Virus genome (UHGV): UHGV-1382693
Source: a virus
DNA length: 43,368 nt
Direction: 5' to 3' (one strand)
In this document: in pieces, positions 4,918 to 43,258 of the stretch
Numbering within the stretch: position 1 is the first letter of the stretch
How the letters are laid out: each line of letters opens with the position of its first letter
Notes under the pieces: generated by a model
Database searches by the model: none
What the model was told of the DNA's origin: nothing
Seen by the model: the letters and a program-made list of their open reading frames with translations, nothing else
Translations under genes and position numbers: made by a program

Positions 4918-5008
4918 ATTATCTCCTTTATTATGTACTCGGCGCAGCAACGCCTGTACTTAAATTATAAAGGAGTTGGGTAGGAATGACAAGATTAAAG
5001 GAGGAATC

Positions 5009-6157
5009 ATGGAAGAAATAATAAAATCGTATAAAGGTTTTAATAAGGATATGACCTGCAAAAATAAACAATATGAAGTGGGAAAGGATTACGAGGAAGA
5101 TAAAGCCGTTGCTTGTGAGTGCGGAATGCATGCATGCGAATACCCACTTGATTGTTTTAAATATTATCCACCATCAAAATCTGTGTATTATGAGGTAGAG
5201 CAGAGTGGAGACATAAGCAGACACGATGATGATAGTAAAATTGCATCAACAAAGATGCACATTGGTGCGCAGTTGAGTATTGCTGGAATTGTAAATGCGG
5301 CCATCAAATATACCAAGGAAAAGATTGAAACAACTTGTATAGAATCTAAGGCAGCAACAGCCGGGGACTACGGAGCAGCAACAGCCGGGTACTACGGAGT
5401 AGCAACAGCCGGGGACTACGGAGCAGCAACAGCCGGGGACTACGGAGCAACAACAGCCGGGTACCACGGAGTAGCAACAGCCGGGGACTACGGAGCAGCA
5501 ACAGCCTGGGACTACGGAGCAACAACAGCCGGGTACCACGGAGTAGCAACAGCCGGGGACTACGGAGCAGCAACAGCCGGGGACAGCGGAGCAGCAACAG
5601 CCGGGGACAGCGGAGCAGCAACAGCCGGGGACTACGGAGCAGCAACAGCCGGGAACTACGGAGTAGCAACAGCCGGGGACTACGGAGCAGCAACAGCCGG
5701 GTACCACGGAGTAGCAACAGCCGGGGACAGCGGAGCAGCAACAGCCTGGGACTGCGGAGCAACAACAGCCGGGGACTACGGAGCAGCAACAGCCGGGAAC
5801 TACGGAGTAGCAACAGCCGGGGACTGCGGAGCAGCAACAGCCGGGTACCACGGAGTAGCAACAGCCGGGGACTACGGAGCAGCAACAGCCTGGGACTGCG
5901 GAGCAGCAACAGCCGGGGACTACGGAGCAGCAACAAGTCGGGGAAAATCATCAACAGGCGAAAATGGATTATCTGTTGCAAGAGGAAATAGGGTAAAAAC
6001 AAAAGGAGGGCTAGGTTCAATTTTGGTTATTGCAGAAGAAGAACAAAATAGCTATAAAATTTCCAGCTGGAAAGCGGTAGTTGTTGATGGAGTAAACATC
6101 AAAGCAGATACATGGTACACGCTTAAAGATGGAGAACTCATAGAAGCGGAAGATTAG
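5009..6157 (+). CDS. Early protein with Cys-containing N-terminal domain, ~24 x 8-aa A-T-A-G-x-x-G-A repeats and a C-terminal domain
   Basis: AAGGAGG RBS before MEEIIKSYKGF. CxC...C..P..CF motif. The repeat block is encoded by a 24-bp tandem array. Confidence 0.8.
   Translation: MEEIIKSYKGFNKDMTCKNKQYEVGKDYEEDKAVACECGMHACEYPLDCFKYYPPSKSVYYEVEQSGDISRHDDDSKIASTKMHIGAQLSIAGIVNAAIKYTKEKIETTCIESKAATAGDYGAATAGYYGVATAGDYGAATAGDYGATTAGYHGVATAGDYGAATAWDYGATTAGYHGVATAGDYGAATAGDSGAATAGDSGAATAGDYGAATAGNYGVATAGDYGAATAGYHGVATAGDSGAATAWDCGATTAGDYGAATAGNYGVATAGDCGAATAGYHGVATAGDYGAATAWDCGAATAGDYGAATSRGKSSTGENGLSVARGNRVKTKGGLGSILVIAEEEQNSYKISSWKAVVVDGVNIKADTWYTLKDGELIEAED
5351..5935. repeat. 24-bp tandem repeat array (gcagcaacagccggggactacgga, ~24 copies), in frame within the CDS
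   Basis: Near-perfect units. Variation is confined to codon 1 (A/T), codon 5 (D/Y/N/W), codon 6 (Y/S/H/C) and codon 8 (A/V). Both complementary frames are also open, as expected for repeats. Confidence 0.95.
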
Positions 6158-17021: not shown

Positions 17022-17420
17022 GTGGAGCTTACACCGAAGCAGAAAGCGTTTGCAGATTATTACATAGAATTCGGAAATGCGGCAGAAGCTGCGAGAAAGG
17101 CTGGTTATAGCTTACGGACAGCAGACGCAATAGGGCGTGAAAACTTACGGAAGCCTACGGTTTCTGCATATATATCTGAACGGCAGAAACAAATTGATGA
17201 TTGCCGCATAGCTGATGCGGCTGAAATACTGCAATACCTTACCTCTGTTATGCGCGGAGAAGTAAAAGACCAATTCGGACTTGATGCTCCGCTGGCAGAG
17301 AGGACCAAAGCGGCGGTGGAATTGGCAAAACGTAAAATAGATACAGACAAGAAGCAGGAGGGCGGCGGGATTACAATTGTCAACAACATACCAAGACCAG
17401 ACAACAATAAATCTGACTGA
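17022..17420 (+). CDS. terS: Terminase small subunit (P27 / Terminase_2 family)
   Basis: LTPKQKAFADYYIEFGNAAEAARKAGYS signature. GTG start. Confidence 0.85.
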   Translation: MELTPKQKAFADYYIEFGNAAEAARKAGYSLRTADAIGRENLRKPTVSAYISERQKQIDDCRIADAAEILQYLTSVMRGEVKDQFGLDAPLAERTKAAVELAKRKIDTDKKQEGGGITIVNNIPRPDNNKSD

Positions 17421-18636
17421 TGTAATCGCCCCTTCCTTCTATGGTGTTCACTGGGATATTATGGACGGAAAGCATACATATTATGACCTGTACGGAGGGA
17501 GAGGTTCCACGAAGTCCTCTTTCATATCTGTGGAGATTGTACTGGGTATGATGGATGACCAAGAGGCCAATGCTGTCATATTCCGAAAGTACGCTGTTAC
17601 AATTGGGGAATCAGTATTTGAGCAGATACAGTGGGCTATAGATGCGCTAGGCGTTACGGATTTATGGGAATCCCGTACAAGCCCATACCGATTTGTTTAT
17701 AAGCCGACAGGACAAAAGATAATATTCCGTGGACTTGACAAGGCGAAGAAAACAAAGTCAATTAAAGCTAGTAAGGGATACTTCAAATATTTGTGGTTTG
17801 AGGAACTGGACGAATTTGCAGGACCGGAAGAAATACGAACTGTTGAACAATCAGTGTTGCGCGGTGGAAGCAAGTTTGTTGTGTTTAAATCCTTCAACCC
17901 ACCCATCAGCCAAAGCAACTGGGCTAATCAGTATGTAAATACTCCAGACGATAGCGCGTATAGGCATAAAAGCGATTACCGTTCTGTACCGGTTGAATGG
18001 CTGGGAGAAATGTTTATTGAACGCGCAGAACATCTTAAAGCCACCAATGAGCGGGCATATAATCATGAGTATTTAGGCTTGCCGGTTGGACTTGGTACAA
18101 ATATATTTGATATGCTGGATGTACGGACAATCACAGACGAGGAAATCCAGAAATACCAAAGCATATATCAGGGGCAAGACTGGGGCTGGTTCCCGGACCC
18201 CAAAGCATTTATCCGGGCCGCTTACATACCAAACAAAGAATTGGTTGTGTTGCTTGATGAAATGGGCGGCTGTAAAATCCGTAATAGTAAGATGGCGGAG
18301 GATATACGGGCGGCTGGGTACGATGATTATACAATCTATTGTGGTGTGGATGAAGAAGAAAGCATTATAGACTTCCGTGACGCTGGTTTACCGGCACGCA
18401 GAGCCATTGTAACACCAGGAAGCAGGAAATACACCTTTGAGTGGTTGCAGTGCCGTACAATCGTTATAGACCCGGCACGCACACCGCAGGCATACAAAGA
18501 AATCATAGAATATGAGCATGAGGTTGACAGCAACGGTGAGGTGATATCGGATTACCCAGATGGAAATGACCACTGGATAGATGCACTCCGCTATGCCACA
18601 AGCCCATTATCCATGAGAAGGGGGAACAGCGCATAA
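17377..18636 (+). CDS. terL: Terminase large subunit (PBSX XtmB-like)
   Basis: Walker A YDLYGGRGSTKSS and a C-terminal nuclease region. The start is uncertain: TTG 17377 overlaps terS. Confidence 0.85.
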   Translation: MSTTYQDQTTINLTDVIAPSFYGVHWDIMDGKHTYYDLYGGRGSTKSSFISVEIVLGMMDDQEANAVIFRKYAVTIGESVFEQIQWAIDALGVTDLWESRTSPYRFVYKPTGQKIIFRGLDKAKKTKSIKASKGYFKYLWFEELDEFAGPEEIRTVEQSVLRGGSKFVVFKSFNPPISQSNWANQYVNTPDDSAYRHKSDYRSVPVEWLGEMFIERAEHLKATNERAYNHEYLGLPVGLGTNIFDMLDVRTITDEEIQKYQSIYQGQDWGWFPDPKAFIRAAYIPNKELVVLLDEMGGCKIRNSKMAEDIRAAGYDDYTIYCGVDEEESIIDFRDAGLPARRAIVTPGSRKYTFEWLQCRTIVIDPARTPQAYKEIIEYEHEVDSNGEVISDYPDGNDHWIDALRYATSPLSMRRGNSA

Positions 18637-20484: not shown

Positions 20485-21717
20485 ATGTTAAGCCCTGATT
20501 ACCTTGCAAGAATCGCAGAAGGAAGCGAAGAAATAGCCTCACAACTCCATACATACATTATTCGTCAGATAATAGACCGCATGATGATACGCATAGGCCG
20601 CGGCGATGATTGCCTGCTCACCTCATCTGACCGATGGCGCATACATGTATTGCAGGACGCAGGGTATCTGCTGGAGGATATAACAGCAGAGTTATCCAAG
20701 TACACCAAGAGGCAGGAGAAAGAGATTAAAGCGGCTATGGAGGAGGCCGGGATAAAAGCTCTGGAATACGACCACAGAATATACGAGGCCGCCGGCCTGT
20801 CTCCTATGCCCCTGACGCAATCCCCGGCCCTTATTCGGCTGATGGAACGCAATTACCTGGCAACATTAGGGGAATGGAAAAACTACACTAGGACAACCGC
20901 GCAATCTGCTCAAAGATTATTTATTAACGAGTGCGATATGGCCTATAACAAAGTTATGAGTGGAGCAACATCTTACACACAAGCAGTTAAAGAGGCCGTA
21001 GAAAATGTGGCCAGTGGGGGTATTACACTTGTTCAATATAGAAGTAAAAATACTGGAGATATAAGAAATGACACGATAGAGACAGCTACAGCACGAGCGG
21101 TACGGACTGGTATAGCACAGGCTACGGCGGAAATTACGCTGGCAAGAATGGTAGAAATGAAGTGGGAAGTTGTGCTGGTGTCGGCGCATGTGGGCGCAAG
21201 AAATGTTGGGGGGATACCAGAGAATCATGAACTTTGGCAAGGAAAATTCTACAGTCTCCCGCAATATGGACATAGATTCCCGGATTTCTATTACTCTACA
21301 GGATATGGAGATATTACTGGATTGTGCGGAGTAAATTGTAGGCATAGTTTTGGACCAGGTGATGGAGAAAATAATCCGTATGACCCAATAGACACAGAGG
21401 AAAATCGAAATCAGTACGAAAAAGAGCAACGCCAGCGAACGCTTGAACGCCGCATCCGCAAGACCAAGCGCGAGGTTATGGGCCTGCAAGAGGCCGTAGA
21501 GAAATGCCAGGACAAGGCGGCAAAGTTTGAGCTACAGCAGGCGCTTGACCGGAAATCCTACTTGCTATCCAAGCAGTATAAGGCATATAACGAGTTTTGT
21601 AAGGAGAATAACCTTAGAACTCAGTCAGAGAGATTACAGATTGCCCGCTGGAGCCGTGAACAGGCTGCAAAGGCCAGAGGGGCGGCGAGACGGTATCAAA
21701 ATGCGAAAGGGGAATGA
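20485..21717 (+). CDS. Head morphogenesis protein (SPP1 gp7 / Mu F-like minor capsid protein)
   Basis: Sits after the portal gene. MuF-like central region. C-terminal coiled coil. Confidence 0.7.
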   Translation: MLSPDYLARIAEGSEEIASQLHTYIIRQIIDRMMIRIGRGDDCLLTSSDRWRIHVLQDAGYLLEDITAELSKYTKRQEKEIKAAMEEAGIKALEYDHRIYEAAGLSPMPLTQSPALIRLMERNYLATLGEWKNYTRTTAQSAQRLFINECDMAYNKVMSGATSYTQAVKEAVENVASGGITLVQYRSKNTGDIRNDTIETATARAVRTGIAQATAEITLARMVEMKWEVVLVSAHVGARNVGGIPENHELWQGKFYSLPQYGHRFPDFYYSTGYGDITGLCGVNCRHSFGPGDGENNPYDPIDTEENRNQYEKEQRQRTLERRIRKTKREVMGLQEAVEKCQDKAAKFELQQALDRKSYLLSKQYKAYNEFCKENNLRTQSERLQIARWSREQAAKARGAARRYQNAKGE

Positions 21718-22103
21718 ATTTGAATAGATGGAAACCATATAACCCTAACCCAGTCCGTAATCAGCGTGTAGGCGACTGTGCCATACGTGCAATCTGCAAA
21801 GCAACCGGACAGGATTGGGAAACCGCCTTTGCTGGCGTTATGGTGGTGGCGTGCGAGAAATCAGATATGCCGTCAGCTAACAGCGTGTGGGGGACATATC
21901 TCAGGCGCAACGGGTTTCGGAGAAACATTATACCAGACGAATATCCAGAAGATTATACCGTGGAAGAATTTTCGGCAGACCACCAAAACGGAGTATTTGT
22001 TCTTGGGCTTGATGGTCATGTGGTAACGGTTGTGGATGGATTTTACTGGGACACATGGGACAGCGGTCAAGAAATACCAATATACTACTGGGAAAGGCGA
22101 TAA
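21714..22103 (+). CDS. Papain-like (C39 / BtrH-like) cysteine-peptidase-fold protein
   Basis: GDCAIRAI carries the candidate catalytic Cys, and DGHVVTVVDG the downstream His/Asp. ATGA-coupled to MuF. Confidence 0.4.
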   Translation: MNLNRWKPYNPNPVRNQRVGDCAIRAICKATGQDWETAFAGVMVVACEKSDMPSANSVWGTYLRRNGFRRNIIPDEYPEDYTVEEFSADHQNGVFVLGLDGHVVTVVDGFYWDTWDSGQEIPIYYWERR

Positions 22104-22106
22104 TTT

Positions 22107-22400
22107 ATGGAAACATTAAACTCTATTATGGTTGTATGCGGTTGGCTTATTACTCTTGGAGGCGCAGGAGCCGTAATATACAAATTGTTGCATCCGGCAT
22201 TTAAGCTAAAAAATCGAGTGGATAAATTAGAAATAAATGTGGAAAATGATTATAAATCTATCAAAGAAATAAGAGATATGCAATCTCTTTTATGCCAAGG
22301 AATGATAGCATTAATTGATAATCGTATAACCGGTAACAACATAGAGGGTTTAAAAAAAACCAAAGAAGCTATGATAAAGCATTTGTCAGAAGGTATTTAA
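22107..22400 (+). CDS. Small membrane protein (N-terminal TM + coiled coil)
   Basis: TM segment IMVVCGWLITLGGAGAVIY. AT-rich. Confidence 0.55.
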   Translation: METLNSIMVVCGWLITLGGAGAVIYKLLHPAFKLKNRVDKLEINVENDYKSIKEIRDMQSLLCQGMIALIDNRITGNNIEGLKKTKEAMIKHLSEGI

Positions 22401-22411
22401 GGAGCGTTGCG

Positions 22412-22612
22412 TTGAAGGTATATGACTTTACAGTGCCAGAACTAAACTATTTTCGTACATATTGTAACTTTACGGATGAAGAACGGGCACTGTTTGAGTA
22501 CCGGGCCAAGAACTATCCTTTGGAGTATTGCGCTGAATTAATGAATGTAAGTGTATCCACAGCAAAGAGATTGAGCAGAAAAGTAAACAACAAAATAATC
22601 CGATTATGTTGA
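22412..22612 (+). CDS. Sigma-70 region-4-only HTH protein
   Basis: LEYCAELMNVSVSTAKRLSRKVNNKI looks like region 4.2. AAGGAG RBS. TTG start. Confidence 0.6.
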   Translation: MKVYDFTVPELNYFRTYCNFTDEERALFEYRAKNYPLEYCAELMNVSVSTAKRLSRKVNNKIIRLC

Positions 22613-22636
22613 TACTTGCGTGATACTTTTATAAGT

Positions 22637-22666
22637 CTTTGACGACCTGTCAAGGGCTTATTTTTT
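22637..22666 (+). terminator. Intrinsic terminator
   Basis: CTTTGAC-gacct-GTCAAGG stem followed by gcttatttttta. Confidence 0.55.
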
Positions 22667-22704
22667 ATGGGATAATTGGATTATAAAAGAACGGAGGGGA
22701 TATA

Positions 22705-23175
22705 ATGCCGCAACCATTTATCAATCCAAACTATCTGAATACATATCCAAACGCATATCCTTATCAGCCACAGATGCAACCACCTATGGACCGATTGCAG
22801 CAGCTACAGGCACCATACCAAATGTCGCAACAGACGCAGGTTTCACAGGTCCCGCAGACCAACCAGGGAATATTATGGGTGCAGGGTGAAGCCGGGGCAA
22901 AGTCGTATTTAGTAGCGCCAAGCACATCCATATTACTGATGGATAGCGAAAATGAGTACTTTTATATTAAAACAACAGATGCAGCAGGTATGCCAACACT
23001 CCGCACTTTTGAATATAAAGAGATTGTTAATGGACGGAAAAAGGAATCTACATCGGCTGAAAATCTGGATGAAAAGTATGTTACCAGAAATGAGTATCAG
23101 GATTTAAAGGCAAAATATGATGAATTATATGGACTTTTAGAAACCAGTACAGCACCAACAGGAAAGGGGAAGTAA
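22705..23175 (+). CDS. P/Q-rich N-terminal protein with conserved C-terminal domain
   Basis: GGAGGGG RBS. N-terminal PQPFINPNYLNTYPNAYPYQPQMQPP. Confidence 0.65.
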   Translation: MPQPFINPNYLNTYPNAYPYQPQMQPPMDRLQQLQAPYQMSQQTQVSQVPQTNQGILWVQGEAGAKSYLVAPSTSILLMDSENEYFYIKTTDAAGMPTLRTFEYKEIVNGRKKESTSAENLDEKYVTRNEYQDLKAKYDELYGLLETSTAPTGKGK

Positions 23176-23178
23176 TAT

Positions 23179-23436
23179 ATGAATCCATTATTTAACATGT
23201 TAGGTGGAATGGGTGGAGGTAGCCCAATGGGAGGAATGATTCCTGGGATGGGCGGAGGAAACAACCCCATGCAGATGATACAGAAATTTATGGAGTTTAA
23301 AAACAATTTCAAGGGAAACCCTCAAGAAGAAGTACAGAAGATGCTACAGTCCGGCCAGATAACTCAGCGGCAATTAGACCAGGCCCAGCAAATGGCCCGG
23401 CAGTTTCAGCAGATGCTTAATGGCATGAAAAAATAG
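23179..23436 (+). CDS. Gly/Met-rich small protein
   Basis: GGMGGGSPMGGMIPGMGGGNNPMQM. AAGGGG RBS. Confidence 0.6.
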   Translation: MNPLFNMLGGMGGGSPMGGMIPGMGGGNNPMQMIQKFMEFKNNFKGNPQEEVQKMLQSGQITQRQLDQAQQMARQFQQMLNGMKK

Positions 23437-23490
23437 TACATAAATCAATGCGCATGATTTTGTAAATATATTTTAAAGGAGTAGACAATT

Positions 23491-24207
23491 ATGGATTCAA
23501 GCTATAGTTTAGCAGACATTGCCGCCGCTACAGGAGGAACAAACCGCAACAATGATGGCTTTGGAGATGGCGGCGCATGGTGGATTATTATACTGTTCTT
23601 ATTTGTTTTCTGTGGCTGGGGCAATGGAAACGGCTTTGGAAACAATGGAGCAGGAGGTGCAGGATTGCAGGGATTAGCAACACGTGCAGACATCAATGAG
23701 GGATTTGCCCTCAACGGAATCGAAAATGGTATAAGGGGTATTCAGCAGGGCATTTGTGATAGCACGTATGCGCTGAACAACACCATTACCAGCGGTTTCA
23801 GCGGAGTGGACCGTAGCTTATGCCAGATGGGCTATCAGCTCCATGATTGCTGTTGCCAGACACAGCGCGCAATTGATGGTGTAAATTATAACCTGGCTAC
23901 ACAGTCATGCGATACCAGAAACACCATTCAGACCGCAACTAGGGATATTCTGGACAACAACAACAGCAATACAAGAGCTATTCTTGACTTCTTAACTCAG
24001 GATAAGATTTCTACCTTACAGGCGGAGAATCAAACCCTTAGATTCCAGGCAAGCCAGACTGCCCAGAACGGATTTATTGATGCAGTTGGTAACTCAATCG
24101 TTGCACAGCTTCGTCAGCCGCAGCCTGTACCGGCTTATACGGTTCCAGCGCCATATCCATATGCCTCTAACTGTGGTTGTGGATGCAATACTGGATGCGG
24201 GTGCTAA
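23491..24207 (+). CDS. Membrane protein with Gly-rich region and Cys-rich C-terminus
   Basis: AAAGGAG RBS. TM segment WWIIILFLFVFCGW flanked by G/N-rich sequence. Ends CGCGCNTGCGC. Confidence 0.7.
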   Translation: MDSSYSLADIAAATGGTNRNNDGFGDGGAWWIIILFLFVFCGWGNGNGFGNNGAGGAGLQGLATRADINEGFALNGIENGIRGIQQGICDSTYALNNTITSGFSGVDRSLCQMGYQLHDCCCQTQRAIDGVNYNLATQSCDTRNTIQTATRDILDNNNSNTRAILDFLTQDKISTLQAENQTLRFQASQTAQNGFIDAVGNSIVAQLRQPQPVPAYTVPAPYPYASNCGCGCNTGCGC

Positions 24208-24416
24208 TGAGAAACGAACAGTTTTACGATAATCTTGCTCTGTATGCAACTGCATTGCAAATGATAAATTTGCTTTTGATTGTTGGTGATGTGTCAAATA
24301 ATGATATTATGGAAGCATTGCAACAGGAGAATAAGGAATACATGGAAAAGATTATCGACCAAAACAACCGCATATTGCGTATCTTGTCCGAAAAGGACAT
24401 GTCTACTGAACAGTAG
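24207..24416 (+). CDS. Small hypothetical protein
   Basis: TAATG coupling. 69 aa. Confidence 0.45.
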   Translation: MRNEQFYDNLALYATALQMINLLLIVGDVSNNDIMEALQQENKEYMEKIIDQNNRILRILSEKDMSTEQ

Positions 24417-24478
24417 TATTACACACATGGAAGGGTAGGCATAAGCTTGCCCTTCTGTGCATATAAGGAGGATTTATT

Positions 24479-24877
24479 ATGGCAGATTTTGTAACTGCTG
24501 GGACACAGACTGTTGCAGTCAATGCAAGCGTTCTGTTTGCTGCAAACAGGATATATTCTTGCAATTGTCCAAACATAAGGCATGAGGCACTCTCTGGTAG
24601 GGTAGTTTTGCTTCCTGGCCTGTACCGCGTAGGATTTAACGGAAACTTTTCCGCAGCCGCAGCAGGTGACGTTATTTTTGAAGTACAGCAGGACGGCGAA
24701 GGCATTCCCGGTGCAAGAATTCAGAACACAGTTGCCGCCGGCGCAACAATCAATGGAGCGGCAACTGTAGAAGTAAGGGTGTGCAAACCATGTTGTGCTA
24801 CCCTATCAGTAAAAAACGTTGGAGCCACAGCAGCGGCAGTATCAGACGCTAACCTTGTTGTTAGCAGAATAGGTTAA
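24479..24877 (+). CDS. Ala/Gly/Val-rich beta-rich protein with Cys pairs (structural subunit-like)
   Basis: AAGGAGG RBS. SCNCPN near the N-terminus and CKPCC near the C-terminus. Confidence 0.7.
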   Translation: MADFVTAGTQTVAVNASVLFAANRIYSCNCPNIRHEALSGRVVLLPGLYRVGFNGNFSAAAAGDVIFEVQQDGEGIPGARIQNTVAAGATINGAATVEVRVCKPCCATLSVKNVGATAAAVSDANLVVSRIG

Positions 24878-24889
24878 GGGGGTAAGGCT

Positions 24890-25429
24890 ATGAGCTATAA
24901 GATGATGCAGAATATCCATGAAGAACTGGATAAGATTGCGGAAAAGGGCCTGAACACTAGCAACCTTGAAACCGCATACAAACTGATAGACATGTGGAAA
25001 GACATGGAGAATGTGGAGTACTGGAAGTGCAAAAAAGAGTACTACAATCAGGTAATGGACGAAATGGATGGCGGAGAATACAGCGAAGCGCGCCGCAAAC
25101 GCGACAGCATGGGACGTTATAGCCGTGCTGATGGAATGTCACAGGACTATGATAATGACAGCTCATATCGCGGCACACGCGGAAAACATTACGTCAGAGG
25201 ACACTACAGCCGTGCGACCGGTCCGGCCTATGATGACTACATGAATCAGAAGCAGAGCTACAGAAGTGGTGGAAAAGATGAGGATTGCAAGCGGCGTATG
25301 CTTGCGGCCTTAGAGGAACATATGGACGAACTAACCGAAGAGTTGGGAGAAATGTCAAAAGATGCTGATTGCCGCGAGGAACGGGAAACCATGAAAAGAT
25401 ATATCGAAAAGTTGCGTAATATGATGTAA
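24890..25429 (+). CDS. Charged helical protein, hypothetical
   Basis: AGGGGG RBS. Several Cys residues. Helical heptad-like N- and C-terminal regions. Confidence 0.65.
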   Translation: MSYKMMQNIHEELDKIAEKGLNTSNLETAYKLIDMWKDMENVEYWKCKKEYYNQVMDEMDGGEYSEARRKRDSMGRYSRADGMSQDYDNDSSYRGTRGKHYVRGHYSRATGPAYDDYMNQKQSYRSGGKDEDCKRRMLAALEEHMDELTEELGEMSKDADCREERETMKRYIEKLRNMM

Positions 25430-25462
25430 CAAAAAGCGGTGGGAATAATCTCACCGCTTTTT
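25430..25462. terminator. Bidirectional intrinsic terminator
   Basis: aaaaAGCGGTG-ggaataatct-CACCGCTttttt. 7-bp GC-rich stem flanked by A-run and T-run, sited between convergent operons. Confidence 0.8.
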
Positions 25463-25498
25463 GAAAATGTATTACCAAAAAAATTTGTTTTCTCTCCT

Positions 25499-25789
25499 TT
25501 AAATATGATTCCAATCTAACATAATATGGATTTCTTTTTCTTCATTATTGATTGCACATAGACAGGGTGATTCTTTCCCTTGAATCAGCTCGTTTGGTGT
25601 ATAAGTCCAACCCCACGGAGCCGTCAACACAATGCCGGCCTCTGTCTCGTCACATCCCCATCCTTCTGGCACTGTGTATTCTATTGGTTCGCTTTCTACT
25701 GCTGTTGGATGAGGATTGCCCTCAGTAAATACCGGATGTTTCTCAGCAGCCAAACATCCATAATTTATGTATCCTTTAAATGTTTTCAT
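25499..25789 (-). CDS. Hypothetical protein (last gene of reverse operon)
   Basis: AGGAGGAG RBS 7 nt upstream. 96 aa with WGxxE and WGW motifs. Confidence 0.6.
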   Translation of the reverse strand: MKTFKGYINYGCLAAEKHPVFTEGNPHPTAVESEPIEYTVPEGWGCDETEAGIVLTAPWGWTYTPNELIQGKESPCLCAINNEEKEIHIMLDWNHI

Positions 25790-25801
25790 TTTTTCTCCTC
25801 C

Positions 25802-26218
25802 TTACAATATGGTTTCATGTACCTCGCGCCCTGCCCGCACATTTTCCAGGTAATTGGGGTCTATGCTCTTTGGACAGTACTCATAATCGCTGTCCTCAAC
25901 TCCTATTTTTGCCATTTCGTCATGTATAATTTTAAAATAATCATCATGAGAAAAGTTGCGGGAATCAGAAAATACATTGTAATTTTCCGGTAACAATTTC
26001 TCATAGGCCAAATCTGAAAAATTATTTAAAAGTTTTTTCATCAGACATGGATGAATCAGTTCTTCCAATTGTCTGATGATTAATTCTTCGGCCCAGGGAG
26101 CCGGGTTCCGTTTCCCAGCCTCCCAATCCTCTATGGTCCTTGTTGGTATACCAAGGTAATCAGATAAATCAGATTGTGTCATGTTGGTTTTCGTACGGTA
26201 CTCTTTAATTCTGTTCAT
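25802..26218 (-). CDS. XRE-family HTH regulator with C-terminal domain
   Basis: MTQSDLSDYLGIPTRTIEDWEAGKRNP HTH. AAGGAGG RBS before ATG 26218. Confidence 0.75.
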   Translation of the reverse strand: MNRIKEYRTKTNMTQSDLSDYLGIPTRTIEDWEAGKRNPAPWAEELIIRQLEELIHPCLMKKLLNNFSDLAYEKLLPENYNVFSDSRNFSHDDYFKIIHDEMAKIGVEDSDYEYCPKSIDPNYLENVRAGREVHETIL

Positions 26219-26228
26219 AACGACCTCC

Positions 26229-26540
26229 TTATTTAACATGTTGTATGATGTATTTGGCATCTGTCATTTTTTCTAACTGACCGATAAGGCTTTCAATTCC
26301 GGCCGTGTAACTCTGCGCATCCATCTTACCCCTGGACATCATTATTCCGGCCATCTCGTCTGTCTTAAAAACCTTCTGGACCAGAATATCTTTTGCATAT
26401 GCCACCTGTTTCTCAGTTCCGGTCATTTCCTGGGTAAACATAAAAGCAATGATTTTATGGCAGTCGGCCCGGTCTACCAGGATATTATATCCGTTCAGCT
26501 CGTTTCTCATTTCCTTTGTATTCTCTGCTCGTCTCATCAT
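26229..26540 (-). CDS. Hypothetical protein (first gene of reverse operon)
   Basis: 103 aa. RBS-like AAGGATGGGGG. Upstream promoter with operator. Confidence 0.55.
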   Translation of the reverse strand: MMRRAENTKEMRNELNGYNILVDRADCHKIIAFMFTQEMTGTEKQVAYAKDILVQKVFKTDEMAGIMMSRGKMDAQSYTAGIESLIGQLEKMTDAKYIIQHVK

Positions 26541-26874: not shown

Positions 26875-26940
26875 TTAGAGCCAGACGCCAGACGCAGAGC
26901 CAAACAGATTACAGCAATGTAGTTTGTTTGGCTTTTTCTT
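26875..26940 (+). terminator. Terminator-like hairpin carrying a conserved 26-nt motif (copy 1)
   Basis: TAGAGCCAGACGCCAGACGCAGAGCC then AGCCAAACA...TGTTTGGCT stem plus tttttctt. Confidence 0.5.
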
Positions 26941-29010: not shown

Positions 29011-29505
29011 ATGGCATATGCAGACTATGAGTTTTACACAACAAAATACTACGGCAGTTCCATACCGGATTCCCAATCATTTGATAAGCAGGCAGAACGG
29101 GCAAGCGACTTCCTTGATAAAATAACATTTGACAGATTGGTTGACGGCCTCCCAGATAATGAACGAGTGCAAACCAAAATCAAGAAAGCCGTATGTGCAT
29201 TAGCTGATAAACTGTATGGTTTGGAACTGGCAGAAAAACAGGCGCTATCTGCCGCCGCGGGAAGTATAACCAGCGGGACCGGCGGCGCAACCACAGGCGT
29301 TATCACGTCAAAGTCATCCGGTTCCGAATCAATCAGCTATGCATCCCCGTCAGAAATAGCTAACGGAGCTAAAGCCTGGAGTGATATATATTCTGCGGCG
29401 GGGAATAAACAGGAAACAAATAATCCCCTGTATGATACCGCAAAGGTGTATCTGATGGGAGTAAAAGATAACGAAGGGACTCCACTTTTATATGCAGGAT
29501 TGTAA
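29011..29505 (+). CDS. Head-tail connector (gp6/gp15-like)
   Basis: DYEFYTTKYYGSSIPDSQSFDKQAERASDFLDKITFDRL. Confidence 0.7.
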   Translation: MAYADYEFYTTKYYGSSIPDSQSFDKQAERASDFLDKITFDRLVDGLPDNERVQTKIKKAVCALADKLYGLELAEKQALSAAAGSITSGTGGATTGVITSKSSGSESISYASPSEIANGAKAWSDIYSAAGNKQETNNPLYDTAKVYLMGVKDNEGTPLLYAGL

Positions 29506-29842
29506 AGTAAACATTCTGGGAACGGAATGGGAAGTTGTCCAGCGTGATGAAAAATCGGATGAAAACCTGGATGGGAAATTTAGGGATGGATATACCGATT
29601 TTTCTACACATATGATTGTGATTTGCAATAAAAAGGACGATTGCGAATTAAAGGACTATGAAGGATATAAAAATGCCATATTACGGCATGAACTCATCCA
29701 TGCGTTTTTGTATGAAAGCGGTCTGGATTCTTCAAGTTCAAATACATGCGGAGCGTGGGCAACTAATGAAGAAATGATTGACTGGTTCGCTATTCAGTCT
29801 CCGAAGATTTTCAAAGTATTCATGGAATTGGGTTTGCTCTGA
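29492..29842 (+). CDS. HExxH-motif small protein (putative metallopeptidase-like)
   Basis: RHELIHAFLYESG. Confidence 0.5.
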   Translation: MQDCKVNILGTEWEVVQRDEKSDENLDGKFRDGYTDFSTHMIVICNKKDDCELKDYEGYKNAILRHELIHAFLYESGLDSSSSNTCGAWATNEEMIDWFAIQSPKIFKVFMELGLL

Positions 29843-29860
29843 TTCCAGAAAGGAAAAGAT

Positions 29861-30124
29861 ATGGACATTACAACATTGGGAACATGTGTGGCTATTGTGG
29901 CTCTGAGCTATGTGGTTGGTCTTGGATGCAAGGCTGCAAAGAAAATACCGGACGAATGGATTCCGGTTATTATGGCTGTTGTGGGTGGTGTTCTTGGCGC
30001 GCTTGGTATGGGAACTATACCAGACTTCCCGGCATCGGACTACATCACGGCCGTAGCAGTTGGAGCTATGTCTGGCCTTACGGCTACGGGAATTAACCAG
30101 ATGTATAAGCAGGCTAAGAAATGA
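29861..30124 (+). CDS. Holin-like small membrane protein (3 TM + basic C-tail)
   Basis: TM1 LGTCVAIVALSYVVGLGC, TM2 WIPVIMAVVGGVLGALGMG, TM3 ITAVAVGAMSGLTATGI, tail NQMYKQAKK. Confidence 0.55.
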   Translation: MDITTLGTCVAIVALSYVVGLGCKAAKKIPDEWIPVIMAVVGGVLGALGMGTIPDFPASDYITAVAVGAMSGLTATGINQMYKQAKK

Positions 30125-30762
30125 GTAACTACCGAAACCGCAGAAATTATGAAAATCTGGAGCGCCAGATATTTGACGGCGTGGGAAAATACGGAATACC
30201 GCAGATAGAACCAGTAACCTACGAGAAAGGCTGTGAATGGATTGGTTTCAACTATGCCAAGACTTGTAAAGAGCCTGAAAAGAAAGGTGTACATTTCTTC
30301 CTTGATGATTACCAATTCAATAGGTTATGGACGGATGTTGACCGATACATACCCATGTTACAAAAATTCCGTTATGTAATGTCTCCAGACTTTTCCACCT
30401 ACACAGACTTTCCAAAAGCTATCCAGATATACAATCATTATAGAAAACATTGGGTAGGCGCATATCTGCAAGAGGCAGGGATACAAGTTATTCCCACGAT
30501 TTCATGGAGTACGCCCGACAGCTTTGAATGGTGCTTTGACGGAGAGCCACAGGGTGGTGTTGTGGCGGTATCGTCTTTAGGCGTGATGAACAGCAAAGAA
30601 AAGAAAGAGTTGTTTCTGATAGGCTACGAGGAAATGGTACGGCGCATTTGCCCGGACACGATTATCTTTTATGGTTATGTGCCAGATGAGTGCATGGGGA
30701 ATATCGTGAGGGTACGAGCGTTTACAGAAAAGTTTAATGAGGTGTTGTGCAATGGGTGGTAG
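30121..30762 (+). CDS. Hypothetical 213-aa protein
   Basis: GVHFFLDDYQFNRLW...VMSPDFSTY...EWCFDG motif blocks. Confidence 0.55.
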   Translation: MSNYRNRRNYENLERQIFDGVGKYGIPQIEPVTYEKGCEWIGFNYAKTCKEPEKKGVHFFLDDYQFNRLWTDVDRYIPMLQKFRYVMSPDFSTYTDFPKAIQIYNHYRKHWVGAYLQEAGIQVIPTISWSTPDSFEWCFDGEPQGGVVAVSSLGVMNSKEKKELFLIGYEEMVRRICPDTIIFYGYVPDECMGNIVRVRAFTEKFNEVLCNGW

Positions 30763-31114
30763 AGGTGGGGCGAGTGGATTATCTGCTAAAAACCAGAAAA
30801 TTTCTTTCAAAGGATTGCCAACTTTAAAAGGTTCAGAAAAACAAGTTAAATGGGCCGAACAAATTAGAAATAATGCTATTGATACTATCAATAGAAATAT
30901 TGATTTAGCTAATGAAAGGATAAAGAAGTATCCAAGCGCTCAAAAAAAATATCAAAATGAAATTGAATCTTTGCAAGAAATAGGCAAACAACTGAAAGAA
31001 GTATTATTAAAAGTATCTAATGCTTCTCAAATTATTGAAAAGCGTCACATATTTGACTCGTCTAGAATATTGGATGAAGCGTCAAAAATCGAACAAAGAA
31101 AAAAGAAACGCTAA
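30752..31114 (+). CDS. AT-rich hypothetical protein (Gly-rich N-terminus then helical)
   Basis: MGGRGGASGLSAKNQ. Much lower GC than its neighbours. Confidence 0.5.
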   Translation: MGGRGGASGLSAKNQKISFKGLPTLKGSEKQVKWAEQIRNNAIDTINRNIDLANERIKKYPSAQKKYQNEIESLQEIGKQLKEVLLKVSNASQIIEKRHIFDSSRILDEASKIEQRKKKR

Positions 31115-31117
31115 TAG

Positions 31118-31594
31118 GTGATTAATATGTACAATGATACAGTAACAGTATTTAACTACTATGAATCATCCACAACTGGTGTTGGTATCTGGTATCCACA
31201 TGTATTATCAGGCGTTGACCTTAATACCGACAAAGGCGCAATACTAAAAAAGTATGGGCCAGACAGCACGGATAATGCAGAGTTACACATAGTATACGAG
31301 TTACAGGATGGTAAACAGATAATCCGCGATGCTGACGGTAAAGAATTGCCGTGGCTTCCTCCGAAGGAGTGGATGAGACAGGTAAATGATTTGCTGGACG
31401 ATACCATTACCTTTGATGCATCGGATAATTGCTTTTTCTGGGAAGGGGTATGGGATAACGGCCCGGTAAACGATGAAGATTATCGTGACGGTTTTTATGC
31501 TTATATGAATAATCGGTATGACTTCGTATATTTGGTATCCTCTGTTGGAGGTCCATACTCTGTGATTCCTCACTTTGAGATATTGGGGAAATAA
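31118..31594 (+). CDS. Minor capsid / head-tail joining protein
   Basis: Position and DTVTVFNYY-type N-terminus. Confidence 0.5.
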   Translation: MINMYNDTVTVFNYYESSTTGVGIWYPHVLSGVDLNTDKGAILKKYGPDSTDNAELHIVYELQDGKQIIRDADGKELPWLPPKEWMRQVNDLLDDTITFDASDNCFFWEGVWDNGPVNDEDYRDGFYAYMNNRYDFVYLVSSVGGPYSVIPHFEILGK

Positions 31595-33191: not shown

Positions 33192-33662
33192 ATGCCTAAT
33201 ATTCCAATAAATATTGAAAGCCCAGTTAAATACTACGATTTTACGGACCAGCATGGAGATGTGCTGGCAACTTTCAAATTTGTTCCAACCGACCTTGACA
33301 TATTCGAGCGGCAGCAGAATGTGTATAAAGCATTCGAGGATATGTGGATGGAATTAAAAACAACTCTTGATAACAAGAAGAAGGAAGAAATGTCGTTAGA
33401 GATAATTAATAAATATGCAAAGTCGCTTCAGGAAAAATTTGATTATCTATTTAACGCAGATACTTCTGGCTTCTTCAAAATCGCCAGTCCATTTACCCCT
33501 ATGGAAAATGGCGACCCTTGGGCGCTGGTGATACTTGAGAGCGTTAAAAAAATTATAGAGCAGGAAACGGGTAAAAATTTCACGGAAATGGAAAGTAAAG
33601 CCGGGAAATATACACAACAGTATAATGCTGGTCCTGGTAAATATCCATTTCCTGTAAAATGA
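33192..33662 (+). CDS. Tail assembly chaperone
   Basis: Position. Acidic. AAGGAGG RBS. Confidence 0.6.
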   Translation: MPNIPINIESPVKYYDFTDQHGDVLATFKFVPTDLDIFERQQNVYKAFEDMWMELKTTLDNKKKEEMSLEIINKYAKSLQEKFDYLFNADTSGFFKIASPFTPMENGDPWALVILESVKKIIEQETGKNFTEMESKAGKYTQQYNAGPGKYPFPVK

Positions 33663-34216
33663 GTGCGGCGTGGTCCCTCCCATATTCTCTCTCTGTTAAT
33701 GGAATAGACTATGAAATCCGTGAGGACTTCCGGGCAATATTAGATATTTTATCAGCCTTTGCGGATGAAGAATTGTCTGACCCAGAGAAAACACAAGCAA
33801 TGCTTGAAATTCTTTACTGGCCCGTTATCCCGCCTCCGCAGGATTTAACAGAAGCGGCAGAAAAAGCATTATGGTTTATCGACTGTGGTGTGGTGCATGA
33901 AGATACTCCATCACCGCGCGTAATTGACTGGGAACAGGACGCAGGAATTATTTTCCCGGCGGTTAACAGGATTGCAGGGTTTGAAACACGCGGATGCCAG
34001 ATAATCCATTGGTGGACTTTCTACGGATGGTTCATGGAAATTGGGGACGGATTGTTTTCTCAGGTCCTTTCTATCCGGCAGAAACTGTCAAAAGGGAAGC
34101 GCTTAGAAAAGTGGGAGCAGGAGTTTTTACAGAACAATAAAAAGCTATGTGAACTTGAAAAATCCACTGACAAATCTAAAGAAGAATTTGATTATTTTGC
34201 AGAGTTGCTAAAGTGA
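33659..34216 (+). CDS. Tail assembly chaperone-like / Gp15-family protein
   Basis: Position before the tape measure, in the -1 frame relative to the upstream chaperone. Confidence 0.55.
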   Translation: MSAAWSLPYSLSVNGIDYEIREDFRAILDILSAFADEELSDPEKTQAMLEILYWPVIPPPQDLTEAAEKALWFIDCGVVHEDTPSPRVIDWEQDAGIIFPAVNRIAGFETRGCQIIHWWTFYGWFMEIGDGLFSQVLSIRQKLSKGKRLEKWEQEFLQNNKKLCELEKSTDKSKEEFDYFAELLK

Positions 34217-41639: not shown

Positions 41640-42023
41640 TCATTTTGTGCTGAAGGCATATAGGTTCGTAAGGTTTGGAACTTGACTGTTATAACCAATA
41701 AATCGTACGGTATCACCTTTACGCACAGAAAACCATATAGGCATTGACGAATTGACTGTGACATCATTATTGACCCAAAAAATATTTATCCCATTTATAA
41801 GTACATTACAACCCTGAGCTGAGATGTTAAAACCAATGGAACCACAAACTATACAATCCTCTGTAGCTGCCCAACTTGTACCGTTAGCAAACCCATCTTT
41901 AATTTTTTTGCTGGTGTCTATGTATGGTAAATTGCTATTTGCTATATAAAAACCATATCCACGAAAGGAGTCAAATGAACCAATTAAAATTATCAAACAA
42001 CACAAAATACGACTTAATAACAA
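41640..42023 (-). CDS. Reverse-strand ORF (127 aa), candidate moron
   Basis: Fills a 338-nt gap between + strand genes with protein-like beta-rich sequence. No clear RBS. Overlaps the next + gene by ~49 nt. Confidence 0.35.
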   Translation of the reverse strand: MLLSRILCCLIILIGSFDSFRGYGFYIANSNLPYIDTSKKIKDGFANGTSWAATEDCIVCGSIGFNISAQGCNVLINGINIFWVNNDVTVNSSMPIWFSVRKGDTVRFIGYNSQVPNLTNLYAFSTK

Positions 42024-42517: not shown

Positions 42518-43258
42518 ATGAGAGATATCACATTGTGCCATCCACGTTTGCAGCTTTTAGCAGGTCAATTGGTGGATGAATGTAATAAACAGGGATTAAA
42601 AATTAAGATAGGCGAAACTCTGCGTACTGTAGCAGAGCAGGATGATTTATATGCCCAGGGCAGGACTAAACCGGGCAACATTGTAACTAATGCGCCCGGT
42701 AGCAGCTATAGCTCCTATCATCAGTGGGGGACTGCTTTTGATATCTTTCGCAATGATGGGACCGGAGCTTACAACGAATCTGATGGTTTTTTTAACCGTG
42801 TAGGTGCTATTGGTGTATCTCTTGGCCTGGAGTGGGGAGGAAATTGGAAATCCATTATGGACAAGCCACATTTTCAGCTTCCAGATTGGGGGAGCAGCAC
42901 ATCTGGAATTAAAAAGCTTTACCGTACACCGGATGAATTTATGAAAACCTGGGTGACAGAGGAACGCACTGGCTGGATTAAGGACAATAACGGCTGGTGG
43001 TACCGCAGACCAGATGGAACTTACCCGGCTAATAAGTGGTGTATCATAAATCACCATTGGTACTTATTTAATAAGGATGGTTATGCTTGCACGAGCTGGC
43101 ACCGCTGGAATGGCAGCACATGTGACCCGGTTGACGGTTCGGGAGATTGGTATTACTTTGACCCGACACCAAACGGACCGTTTGAGGGAGCCTGCTGGCA
43201 TAGTCAGGATAATGGGGCGCTGGAAATCTGGTACATAGAGGATTCTAACTCAATATAA
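42518..43258 (+). CDS. Endolysin: M15 (VanY-like) peptidase + C-terminal cell-wall-binding repeats
   Basis: SYHQWGTAFD and DKPHFQL resemble M15 zinc-peptidase motifs. The C-terminus carries GW..DNNGWWY-type repeats. GGAGG RBS. Confidence 0.8.
   Translation: MRDITLCHPRLQLLAGQLVDECNKQGLKIKIGETLRTVAEQDDLYAQGRTKPGNIVTNAPGSSYSSYHQWGTAFDIFRNDGTGAYNESDGFFNRVGAIGVSLGLEWGGNWKSIMDKPHFQLPDWGSSTSGIKKLYRTPDEFMKTWVTEERTGWIKDNNGWWYRRPDGTYPANKWCIINHHWYLFNKDGYACTSWHRWNGSTCDPVDGSGDWYYFDPTPNGPFEGACWHSQDNGALEIWYIEDSNSI

Follow-up and report, generated by a model that had tools for sequence, protein, structure and literature searches.

The temperate siphophage genome UHGV-1382693, 43,368 nt long and analysed here in full (the window), carries four genes between its head-tail adaptor gene and a neck gene, and the second of them encodes a small membrane protein of the Hol44 holin family, which we call HolA. 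We propose that HolA is probably the lysis holin of this phage and of its lineage, and that its gene is a resident of this slot although the endolysin gene lies 12.4 kb further downstream. A sequence-only reading of the window had described the four genes as an insertion and had left two possibilities, a lysis holin displaced by about 12 kb or a distinct membrane-acting cargo module. All four open reading frames (ORFs) were confirmed at this place, with profile matches far beyond chance, and the comparative data given below favour the displaced holin.

HolA matched the Pfam family Phage_holin_5_2 (PF16079, the Hol44 family) over residues 12-84 of 87 with an E-value of 2.8e-21 and a score of 76 bits (cutoff 29.2), and PHROG 1129, annotated as 'holin', with an E-value of 7.5e-21; a weaker profile match was obtained for PF06946. 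HolA is the sole holin-family match in the window. A hydropathy scan placed strong transmembrane (TM) segments at residues 3-21 and 34-52 and a weaker third at about 61-80, and the loop charges are compatible with an N-out/C-in topology. The earlier description as a three-TM holin with a charged tail is thus borne out for the family, but the third segment is weak and the basic tail consists of KQAKK only. No dual-start holin/antiholin motif was found in HolA, which has a single Met start (MDITT); the HolA of one relative (L042) begins with MMDITT. In family profile, small size, several TM segments and basic C-terminus, HolA resembles Hol44 of Oenococcus phage fOg44 (PF16079, holin superfamily V) and Hol118 of Listeria phage A118. 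Unlike the genes for Hol44 and Hol118, which adjoin their lysin genes, the HolA gene lies between head-tail joining genes and is not beside the endolysin gene, ending at 30124 where the lysin starts at 42518. Such adjacency is usual for holin genes but not obligatory (PMC9327680).

The endolysin consists of an M15 peptidase and choline-binding repeats. Its N-terminus, MRDITLCHPRLQLLAGQLVDE, is without a hydrophobic stretch, and neither a signal peptide nor a signal-arrest-release (SAR) sequence was found by inspection of the sequence and a hydropathy scan, suggesting a cytoplasmic enzyme. Only an XkdX-like ORF and a phrog_12931 ORF precede the lysin gene, the former matching phrog_134 and Pfam Phage_XkdX with an E-value of 2.5e-4 and 21.5 bits, just under the cutoff of 23.5. 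The statement that an XkdX-like gene directly precedes the lysin and that no holin adjoins it was correct: no plus-strand ORF with a TM segment occurs within 2 kb of the lysin. A second holin beside the lysin was also sought by a six-frame TM scan of the window and 34 related lysin regions, and was rejected, with minus-strand or marginal ORFs as the only hits. Nor is a holin concealed beyond the end of the window, which is a complete genome. In a relative (L039) an identical lysin gene is followed by about 290 bp and then the integrase gene, and the circular Dulem virus 35 has the same order of lysin, att region and integrase, indicating that nothing is hidden past the right end.

To place the slot in its lineage, a survey was anchored on the tail chaperone-like gene (33659-34216), which gave 54 IMG/VR loci spanning slot and lysin, and GenBank relatives were added; slot counts below refer to the 54 loci with both anchors, the window included. 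The adaptor gene is kept upstream and the phrog_3366 neck gene downstream of the slot in all related loci. A small multi-TM protein is encoded in the slot in 52/54 loci. In 38 of these loci it is HolA, which is the sole gene between adaptor and neck gene in 19, and in 14 exactly the same position is occupied by HolB, a protein of 104-106 amino acids (aa) whose three TM segments are all strong and whose C-terminus is charged (L049:5777-6091, L011:7141-7461 and 12 more loci). HolB belongs to phrog_18218 ('unknown function'), has no Pfam match and shows no detectable similarity to HolA (BLASTP E 11). HolB phages carry three lysin types at the operon end (M15, Amidase_2-like and CHAP-like), and a TM scan found no coding-strand holin-like ORF beside these lysins. 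The in-place swap of HolA and HolB points to selection for one generic membrane function, and phrog_18218 may be regarded as a candidate new holin family. A wider search with HolA gave at least 594 matches, and the best 79 relatives (at least 71% identity) are all in the same slot wherever the contig includes the flank, with adaptor identities down to 54%. The ratio of nonsynonymous to synonymous substitution rates (dN/dS) was 0.077 for HolA (802 pairs), 0.069 for HolB and 0.077 for the neck gene, so that purifying selection on both proteins is as strong as on the adjacent structural gene, and HolA is intact in every relative examined.

The slot holds neither HolA nor HolB in 2 of the 54 loci. 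One (L007) is a fragment of 6 kb that does not include the lysis region; the other is Blautia phage Montmirail (ON453898). Montmirail resembles the window in its major capsid protein (65% identical) and in the order adaptor, HExxH protein, phrog_3366, minor head protein and tail completion protein. In contrast to the window, its slot has no holin, and a holin of the Hol44 family (Pfam E 1.7e-9, 31% identical to HolA) is encoded in the canonical place directly upstream of the endolysin. Dulem virus 35 (PP511522) shares with the window the connector gene, a slot holin (52% identical, annotated as 'holin protein') and a phrog_3366 homolog; its lysin gene, with a product 70% identical, closes the late region ahead of the integrase, and nothing beside it is annotated as a holin. 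It differs in that the three accessory genes are absent. The slot arrangement has thus already been deposited and machine-annotated. A further contig (L142:5502-9982) has an in-frame fusion of the minor head gene and a GH25/CHAP lysin gene (543 aa) with an integrase gene directly after it, and all tail genes are gone. The proximity of holin and lysin in L142 was considered as an ancestral cassette and rejected, the locus being a deletion derivative or remnant.

In the proposed mechanism, the holin gene would be transcribed with the other late genes as one long operon, and a ribosome site of its own would drive its translation. HolA would build up in the membrane as a class I-like holin with three TM segments, N-out and C-in, and at a programmed time would open holes that free the cytoplasmic M15/choline-binding endolysin encoded far downstream. 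The late genes form one long plus-strand run from the scaffold gene (27140) to the endolysin gene. Because they apparently belong to one operon, the 12-kb gap need not much change the timing or dosage of the two proteins, which would explain the stability of the arrangement. Consensus scans gave no promoter or terminator signal above chance for the slot (47 promoter-like sites where 50 were expected, and 15 terminator-like sites where 13 were), and a slot with its own promoter or terminator was rejected.

The evidence for the lysis role is all comparative, and several observations speak against it. Most of the 54 loci were taken from a single metagenome project (3300045988) and cannot count as independent samples, and the TM segments were predicted by a simple hydropathy scan rather than a dedicated predictor, with the third segment of HolA weak. 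The TM scan found no lysin-adjacent holin in the close lineage, and Montmirail has one where its slot holin is missing, but a sister lineage has both. In that lineage, where HolA is about 80% identical and the lysin is of the GH25 type, the slot HolA is accompanied by a 73-aa protein with two TM segments upstream of the lysin (phrog_297 'holin', E 3.3e-7) and by a 198-aa TM protein, also upstream of the lysin, so that lysis there may involve two membrane proteins, of which HolA would be one. One locus (L105) carries HolB and HolA in tandem. Holins are also very diverse, and an unrecognised one could exist elsewhere in the window. A candidate alternative holin or lysis regulator is a 97-aa protein (22107-22400) with an N-terminal TM segment and a coiled-coil tail, which has no Pfam or PHROG match and is conserved in relatives at 38-100% identity, and a second candidate is a 238-aa protein with one TM segment (23491-24207).

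These observations would fit a slot protein that is only auxiliary, as a second holin, an antiholin or timing partner, or a membrane protein of the virion or of entry, the hole being formed by a family-less small TM protein elsewhere, such as the product of 22107-22400. Two-component holin systems are indeed known in Firmicutes phages (PMC9327680). We consider such a division of labour unlikely in the window, as its own lineage has no other holin-family gene and homologs of the 73-aa and 198-aa proteins of the sister lineage are absent from both the window and the close lineage. Furthermore, Montmirail has a protein of the same family in the canonical place, the prototype Hol44 of fOg44 has been reported as a canonical holin (PMC6116005), and HolA is replaced in place by a holin-like three-TM protein. 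A lysin that needs no phage holin, leaving the cell by a host route or on membrane collapse, with the slot gene as a decaying remnant, is very improbable: holin-independent export occurs elsewhere, for example with Lys44 of fOg44 and with SAR endolysins (PMC6116005), but the lysin of the window has no export signal of either kind, and the selection seen over the 802 HolA pairs is not that of a decaying gene.

The other possibility of the sequence-only reading, that the four genes are one horizontally acquired membrane-acting cargo module moving as a unit, fared no better. The genes are contiguous and translationally coupled, with junctions in the slot that are overlaps or gaps of at most 18 nt and a DUF4417 gene start that overlaps the holin stop (ATGA); the last gene is foreign by composition, and a four-gene arrangement identical to that of the window occurs in 9 related contigs. 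However, the slot has 19 kinds of architecture, always in the same order, the holin is alone in 19 loci, the HExxH gene occurs with or without DUF4417, and in other phages the DUF4417 and GGRGG genes lie near the terminase gene. Only the holin has TM segments, the HExxH protein being acidic and soluble and the GGRGG protein basic and soluble. A single module was therefore rejected as highly improbable, since the four genes do not move together and the holin is the constant resident among many gene combinations.

The slot around the holin is instead a hotspot for optional genes. The first position, upstream of the holin, holds the HExxH gene, a gene for a phrog_419 protein or one for a crAss001_48-like protein, and the third position, after the holin, holds genes for GGRGG proteins, DUF4417, an HNH endonuclease or a set of ribbon-helix-helix (RHH) protein, p90 and antirepressor. 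Both positions are filled in the window, and its HExxH, DUF4417 and MGGRGG genes form two independent cassettes of optional cargo. The region is accordingly an insertion as regards these three genes, but not as regards the resident holin. The HExxH gene and the unrelated phrog_419 gene share the N-terminus MQDC(K/S)VNI (29492-29520; L042:6162-6479), because each of the two shares its first 14 nt with the adaptor gene, at the conserved 3' end of the latter, and this overlap marks the recombination boundary of the first-position cassette. The coordinates of these and other features are collected in the table.

Features of the window, with position, strand and the match or context that identifies them
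Feature	Position	Strand	Evidence or context
Tyrosine integrase	179-1423	minus	left end of window
Small and large terminase	17022-18636		packaging genes, with portal and MuF-like minor head protein after
Block of PHROG families of unknown function, ~5 kb	21714-26540		between MuF-like minor head gene and scaffold gene
Head-tail adaptor, left slot anchor	29011..29505	+	phrog_541 E 3.6e-20
HExxH protein, 116 aa	29492..29842	+	phrog_1233 E 1.7e-27
Holin HolA, 87 aa	29861..30124	+	Pfam PF16079, PHROG 1129
DUF4417 protein, 213 aa	30121..30762	+	Pfam PF14386, phrog_8680, phrog_940
MGGRGG protein, basic, AT-rich, 120 aa	30752..31114	+	sequence and ribosome site
Neck/connector gene, right slot anchor	31118..31594	+	phrog_3366 E 2.3e-23
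XkdX-like ORF, 41 aa, no TM segment	42390..42515	+	directly upstream of lysin
Endolysin, last late gene	42518..43258	+	Peptidase_M15_4 E 8e-13, VanY, Choline_bind; phrog_2649 endolysin

Holin and lysis regulator genes far from the endolysin gene are not new. The t and e genes of T4 are unlinked lysis genes. Functional unlinked lysis genes have also been described in the Bacillus phages Deep-Blue and Vp4 (PMC9327680) and in P1 (PMC9025707), and LysA2b of D29, which is functional, is encoded downstream of the tape measure gene (bioRxiv 10.64898/2026.08.27.747656). These phages resemble the window in that a holin or lysis regulator is distant from the endolysin, sometimes within the structural region, but they differ in holin families and positions, and neither a fixed holin slot between adaptor and neck gene nor an in-place swap by an unrelated holin is reported in the papers cited. 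Our full-text literature search found no paper describing a holin between head-tail genes. The position of HolA is thus unusual but conserved, and the finding is a fairly ordinary one, unlinked holins being known already. For annotation, it suggests looking for the lysis holin of a large group of human-gut Lachnospiraceae phages in the interval from the head-tail adaptor gene to the neck gene instead of next to the lysin, and reading phrog_18218 provisionally as a holin on positional grounds. For evolution, it offers a case of an essential small gene that is held at a module boundary and replaced in place by an unrelated analogue amid a hotspot for optional genes.

The larger pay-off may lie in the third position, where a module of DUF4417 and GGRGG-leader proteins holds two of the four slot genes. 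The 213-aa protein pointed out by the sequence-only reading matched Pfam PF14386 (DUF4417) with an E-value of 1.4e-57 and 194.6 bits (cutoff 28.9), and its dN/dS is 0.088. An AlphaFold2 (AF2) model of moderate quality, with a predicted local distance difference test (pLDDT) score of 71, has an alpha/beta fold. In a BFVD structure search the best matches outside the family were weak and were to phage queuine tRNA-ribosyltransferase-like proteins (E 2e-3 to 3e-2), a Foldseek search of the Protein Data Bank (PDB) returned only weak TIM-barrel-like enzymes, and a PDB sequence search gave no match; the likeness to queuine tRNA-ribosyltransferase-like proteins is suggestive only.

The last slot gene had been described as AT-rich with an MGGRGG N-terminus. 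Its composition and leader agree with this: the GC content of the gene body is 0.29, which falls in the lowest 1.2% of 330-bp windows, and the mean of the whole window is 0.414. The mechanical ORF start at 30737 (125 aa) is, however, less likely than the ATG at 30752 (120 aa), which follows a GAGGTG ribosome site. The protein has the leader MGGRGGASG and an isoelectric point (pI) of 10.1. Over residues 25-93 it resembles parts of large phage proteins, one of them the 1599-aa phrog_5218 protein, and no recognised toxin domain was found in it. In the close lineage the DUF4417 and MGGRGG proteins always co-occur.

The leader MGGRGG[SATKN]SG[LMIF] is common to many unrelated small proteins. A scan of IMG/VR for the leader pattern gave at least 118 loci with 85 distinct ORFs, which fall into at least 21 C-terminal clusters and have a median pI of 10.1. 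For the Arg of the leader some genes use AGA and others CGT or CGC, indicating that the leader is conserved at the amino-acid level. MGGRGG as a recombination junction or a by-product of gene overlap was rejected, as the codons differ and the leader is also found after the holin and after other MGG genes. Three leader clusters contain effector domains in Pfam searches, namely a Gln_amidase papain-fold toxin (E 1.9e-8), ADPrib_exo_Tox (E 3e-7) and ART-PolyVal (E 1.7e-11). The GGRGG-leader proteins hence show the features of polymorphic effectors, with a common leader, unrelated C-termini and toxin domains in some.

When DUF4417 contexts were fetched without regard to the motif, a GGRGG-leader gene was found directly upstream or downstream in 44/54 distinct contexts. 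The pair also adjoins terminase or portal genes in other phages and is present in the isolated Dorea phage DO134P1; loci that show the pairing include L003:8845-9856 and L002:8986-9884. Among GenBank phages DUF4417 occurs in 509 records, 385 of them from Mycobacterium phages. In the Cluster A phage Gladiator (L314:411-1915), gene 1 encodes DUF4417 and gene 2, annotated as 'peptidase', encodes MGGRGGSGG, a Gly-rich linker and an HExxH domain. D29 (L316:470-2106) has an equivalent pair at its left end, where an uninterrupted ORF from ATG 1072 starts with MGGRGSAGSGG, and in Gordonia phage KatherineG (L318:577-2132) an ORF beginning MGGRGSGGGG runs in frame into an annotated ADP-ribosyltransferase toxin. 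The annotated starts in D29 (AP018480) and KatherineG appear to miss the leader. LeBron is without the leader, showing that the pairing is not universal. It nevertheless spans phages of Firmicutes and Actinobacteria, including those of Lachnospiraceae and Streptococcus and Cluster A mycobacteriophages.

Some leaders are preceded by a second motif. The homolog in Roseburia phage Jekyll begins (M)NLQFF-GGRGGSSG, and a scan for M(x)0-4-NLQ(F/L)F-GGRGG gave 52 loci (L262-L313) with the same C-terminal families as the direct MGGRGG genes, and the motif was also seen at L002:9612-9884. On the sister-lineage contigs L265 and L262 (shared with L101 and others), two effector genes with NLQFF/DLQFF-GGRG lie downstream of the lysin without an adjoining DUF4417 gene. 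The host ribosomal protease Prp cleaves at a motif of NLQFF followed by Ala, and this motif is found on ribosomal protein L27 as well as on capsid and scaffold proteins in phage 80alpha (PMC9405229, PMC5744158). Lachnospiraceae L27 carries this motif as MLNMNLQFF'AHKK. Either removal of Met before Gly or cleavage by Prp is predicted to expose the same mature N-terminus, GGRGG.

The Alt and internal proteins of T4 are delivered with the virion and have a capsid-targeting leader. The concept of virion-delivered effectors has also been set out for polyvalent proteins (PMC5512222). The GGRGG proteins resemble T4 Alt, the polyvalent proteins and the 80alpha cases in having a short common N-terminus on variable bodies, a basic character and a place beside virion or packaging genes; some have ART-PolyVal, ADPrib_exo_Tox or Gln_amidase domains, and some the exact NLQFF motif directly ahead of GGRGG. 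They differ in being small single-domain proteins rather than giant fusions, in having another leader and DUF4417 as a dedicated neighbour, and in being known from sequence alone. A term search of the polyvalent-protein paper (PMC5512222), which is not one of the four papers found to mention DUF4417, did not find a GGRGG-type leader, and a literature search found no paper with MGGRGG in a phage context.

DUF4417 and the GGRGG-leader proteins thus look like an undescribed effector module. Gene position, basic pI and the Prp-type motif suggest delivery by the virion, and we tentatively propose that DUF4417 might recognise or process small basic polymorphic effectors with a free GGRGG N-terminus, generated by Met removal or by Prp, so that they would be packaged in the virion and carried into the next host with the DNA. 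As a possible set, these effectors could comprise ADP-ribosyltransferases, a deamidase, peptidases and many proteins of unknown kind. It is much less likely that DUF4417, with its weak likeness to the tRNA-guanine transglycosylase fold and frequent fusion to ParB, could tether the N-terminal amine to phage DNA. DUF4417 is scarcely mentioned in the literature despite hundreds of phage records, and it now has a testable partner in proteins with the GGRGG N-terminus, some of them with toxin domains; the pairing occurs in genetically tractable phages, namely D29 and other Cluster A mycobacteriophages.

The small HExxH protein, whose presence at the head of the slot was confirmed, is predicted to be a minimal zincin-like metallopeptidase. 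It has 1167 homologs, and H66, E67, H70, E75 and E93 are invariant across 30 sequences. The AF2 model (pLDDT 91) shows a four-strand sheet and two long helices; Foldseek matches in the PDB were weak (E at least 0.6) and were to the minigluzincins jannalysin and selecase and to IrrE/PprI, and neither a significant Pfam match nor a PDB sequence match was obtained. The gene has two alleles that are about 48% identical, and its presence is independent of the other slot genes. In Roseburia phage Jekyll it lies between terminase and portal, and Montmirail carries it in the slot with a second copy upstream of the terminase.

As to the remainder of the genome, the host is a member of the Lachnospiraceae, probably Enterocloster, as suggested by near-identical proteins recorded from Enterocloster clostridioformis and E. 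aldenensis. A helix-turn-helix (HTH) repressor gene is found with the integrase gene at the left end. To the right of the slot, the likely start of the phrog_3366 gene is ATG 31127, and the genes beyond it encode the minor head protein and then the tail completion protein. The block at 21714-26540 is probably the first insertion of the sequence-only reading. The genes of the 97-aa and 238-aa TM proteins named above lie within it; the 238-aa protein belongs to phrog_16490 and has Gly-rich stretches, three of its genes are on the minus strand, among them one for an HTH protein (25802-26260), and a strong terminator-like hairpin (26896-26935) closes the block. Between the tail-fibre region and the lysis genes, a 127-aa minus-strand ORF (41640-42023) with a signal-peptide-like N-terminus matched no family, occurs in only part of the relatives and has the look of a lysogenic-conversion moron. 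Finally, the segment 5246-6020 is GC-rich and highly repetitive, with a GC content of 0.62 over 5501-6000; it lies within a 393-aa ORF (4976-6157), and its antisense frames read as PGCC/LLLLRS-type repeats.

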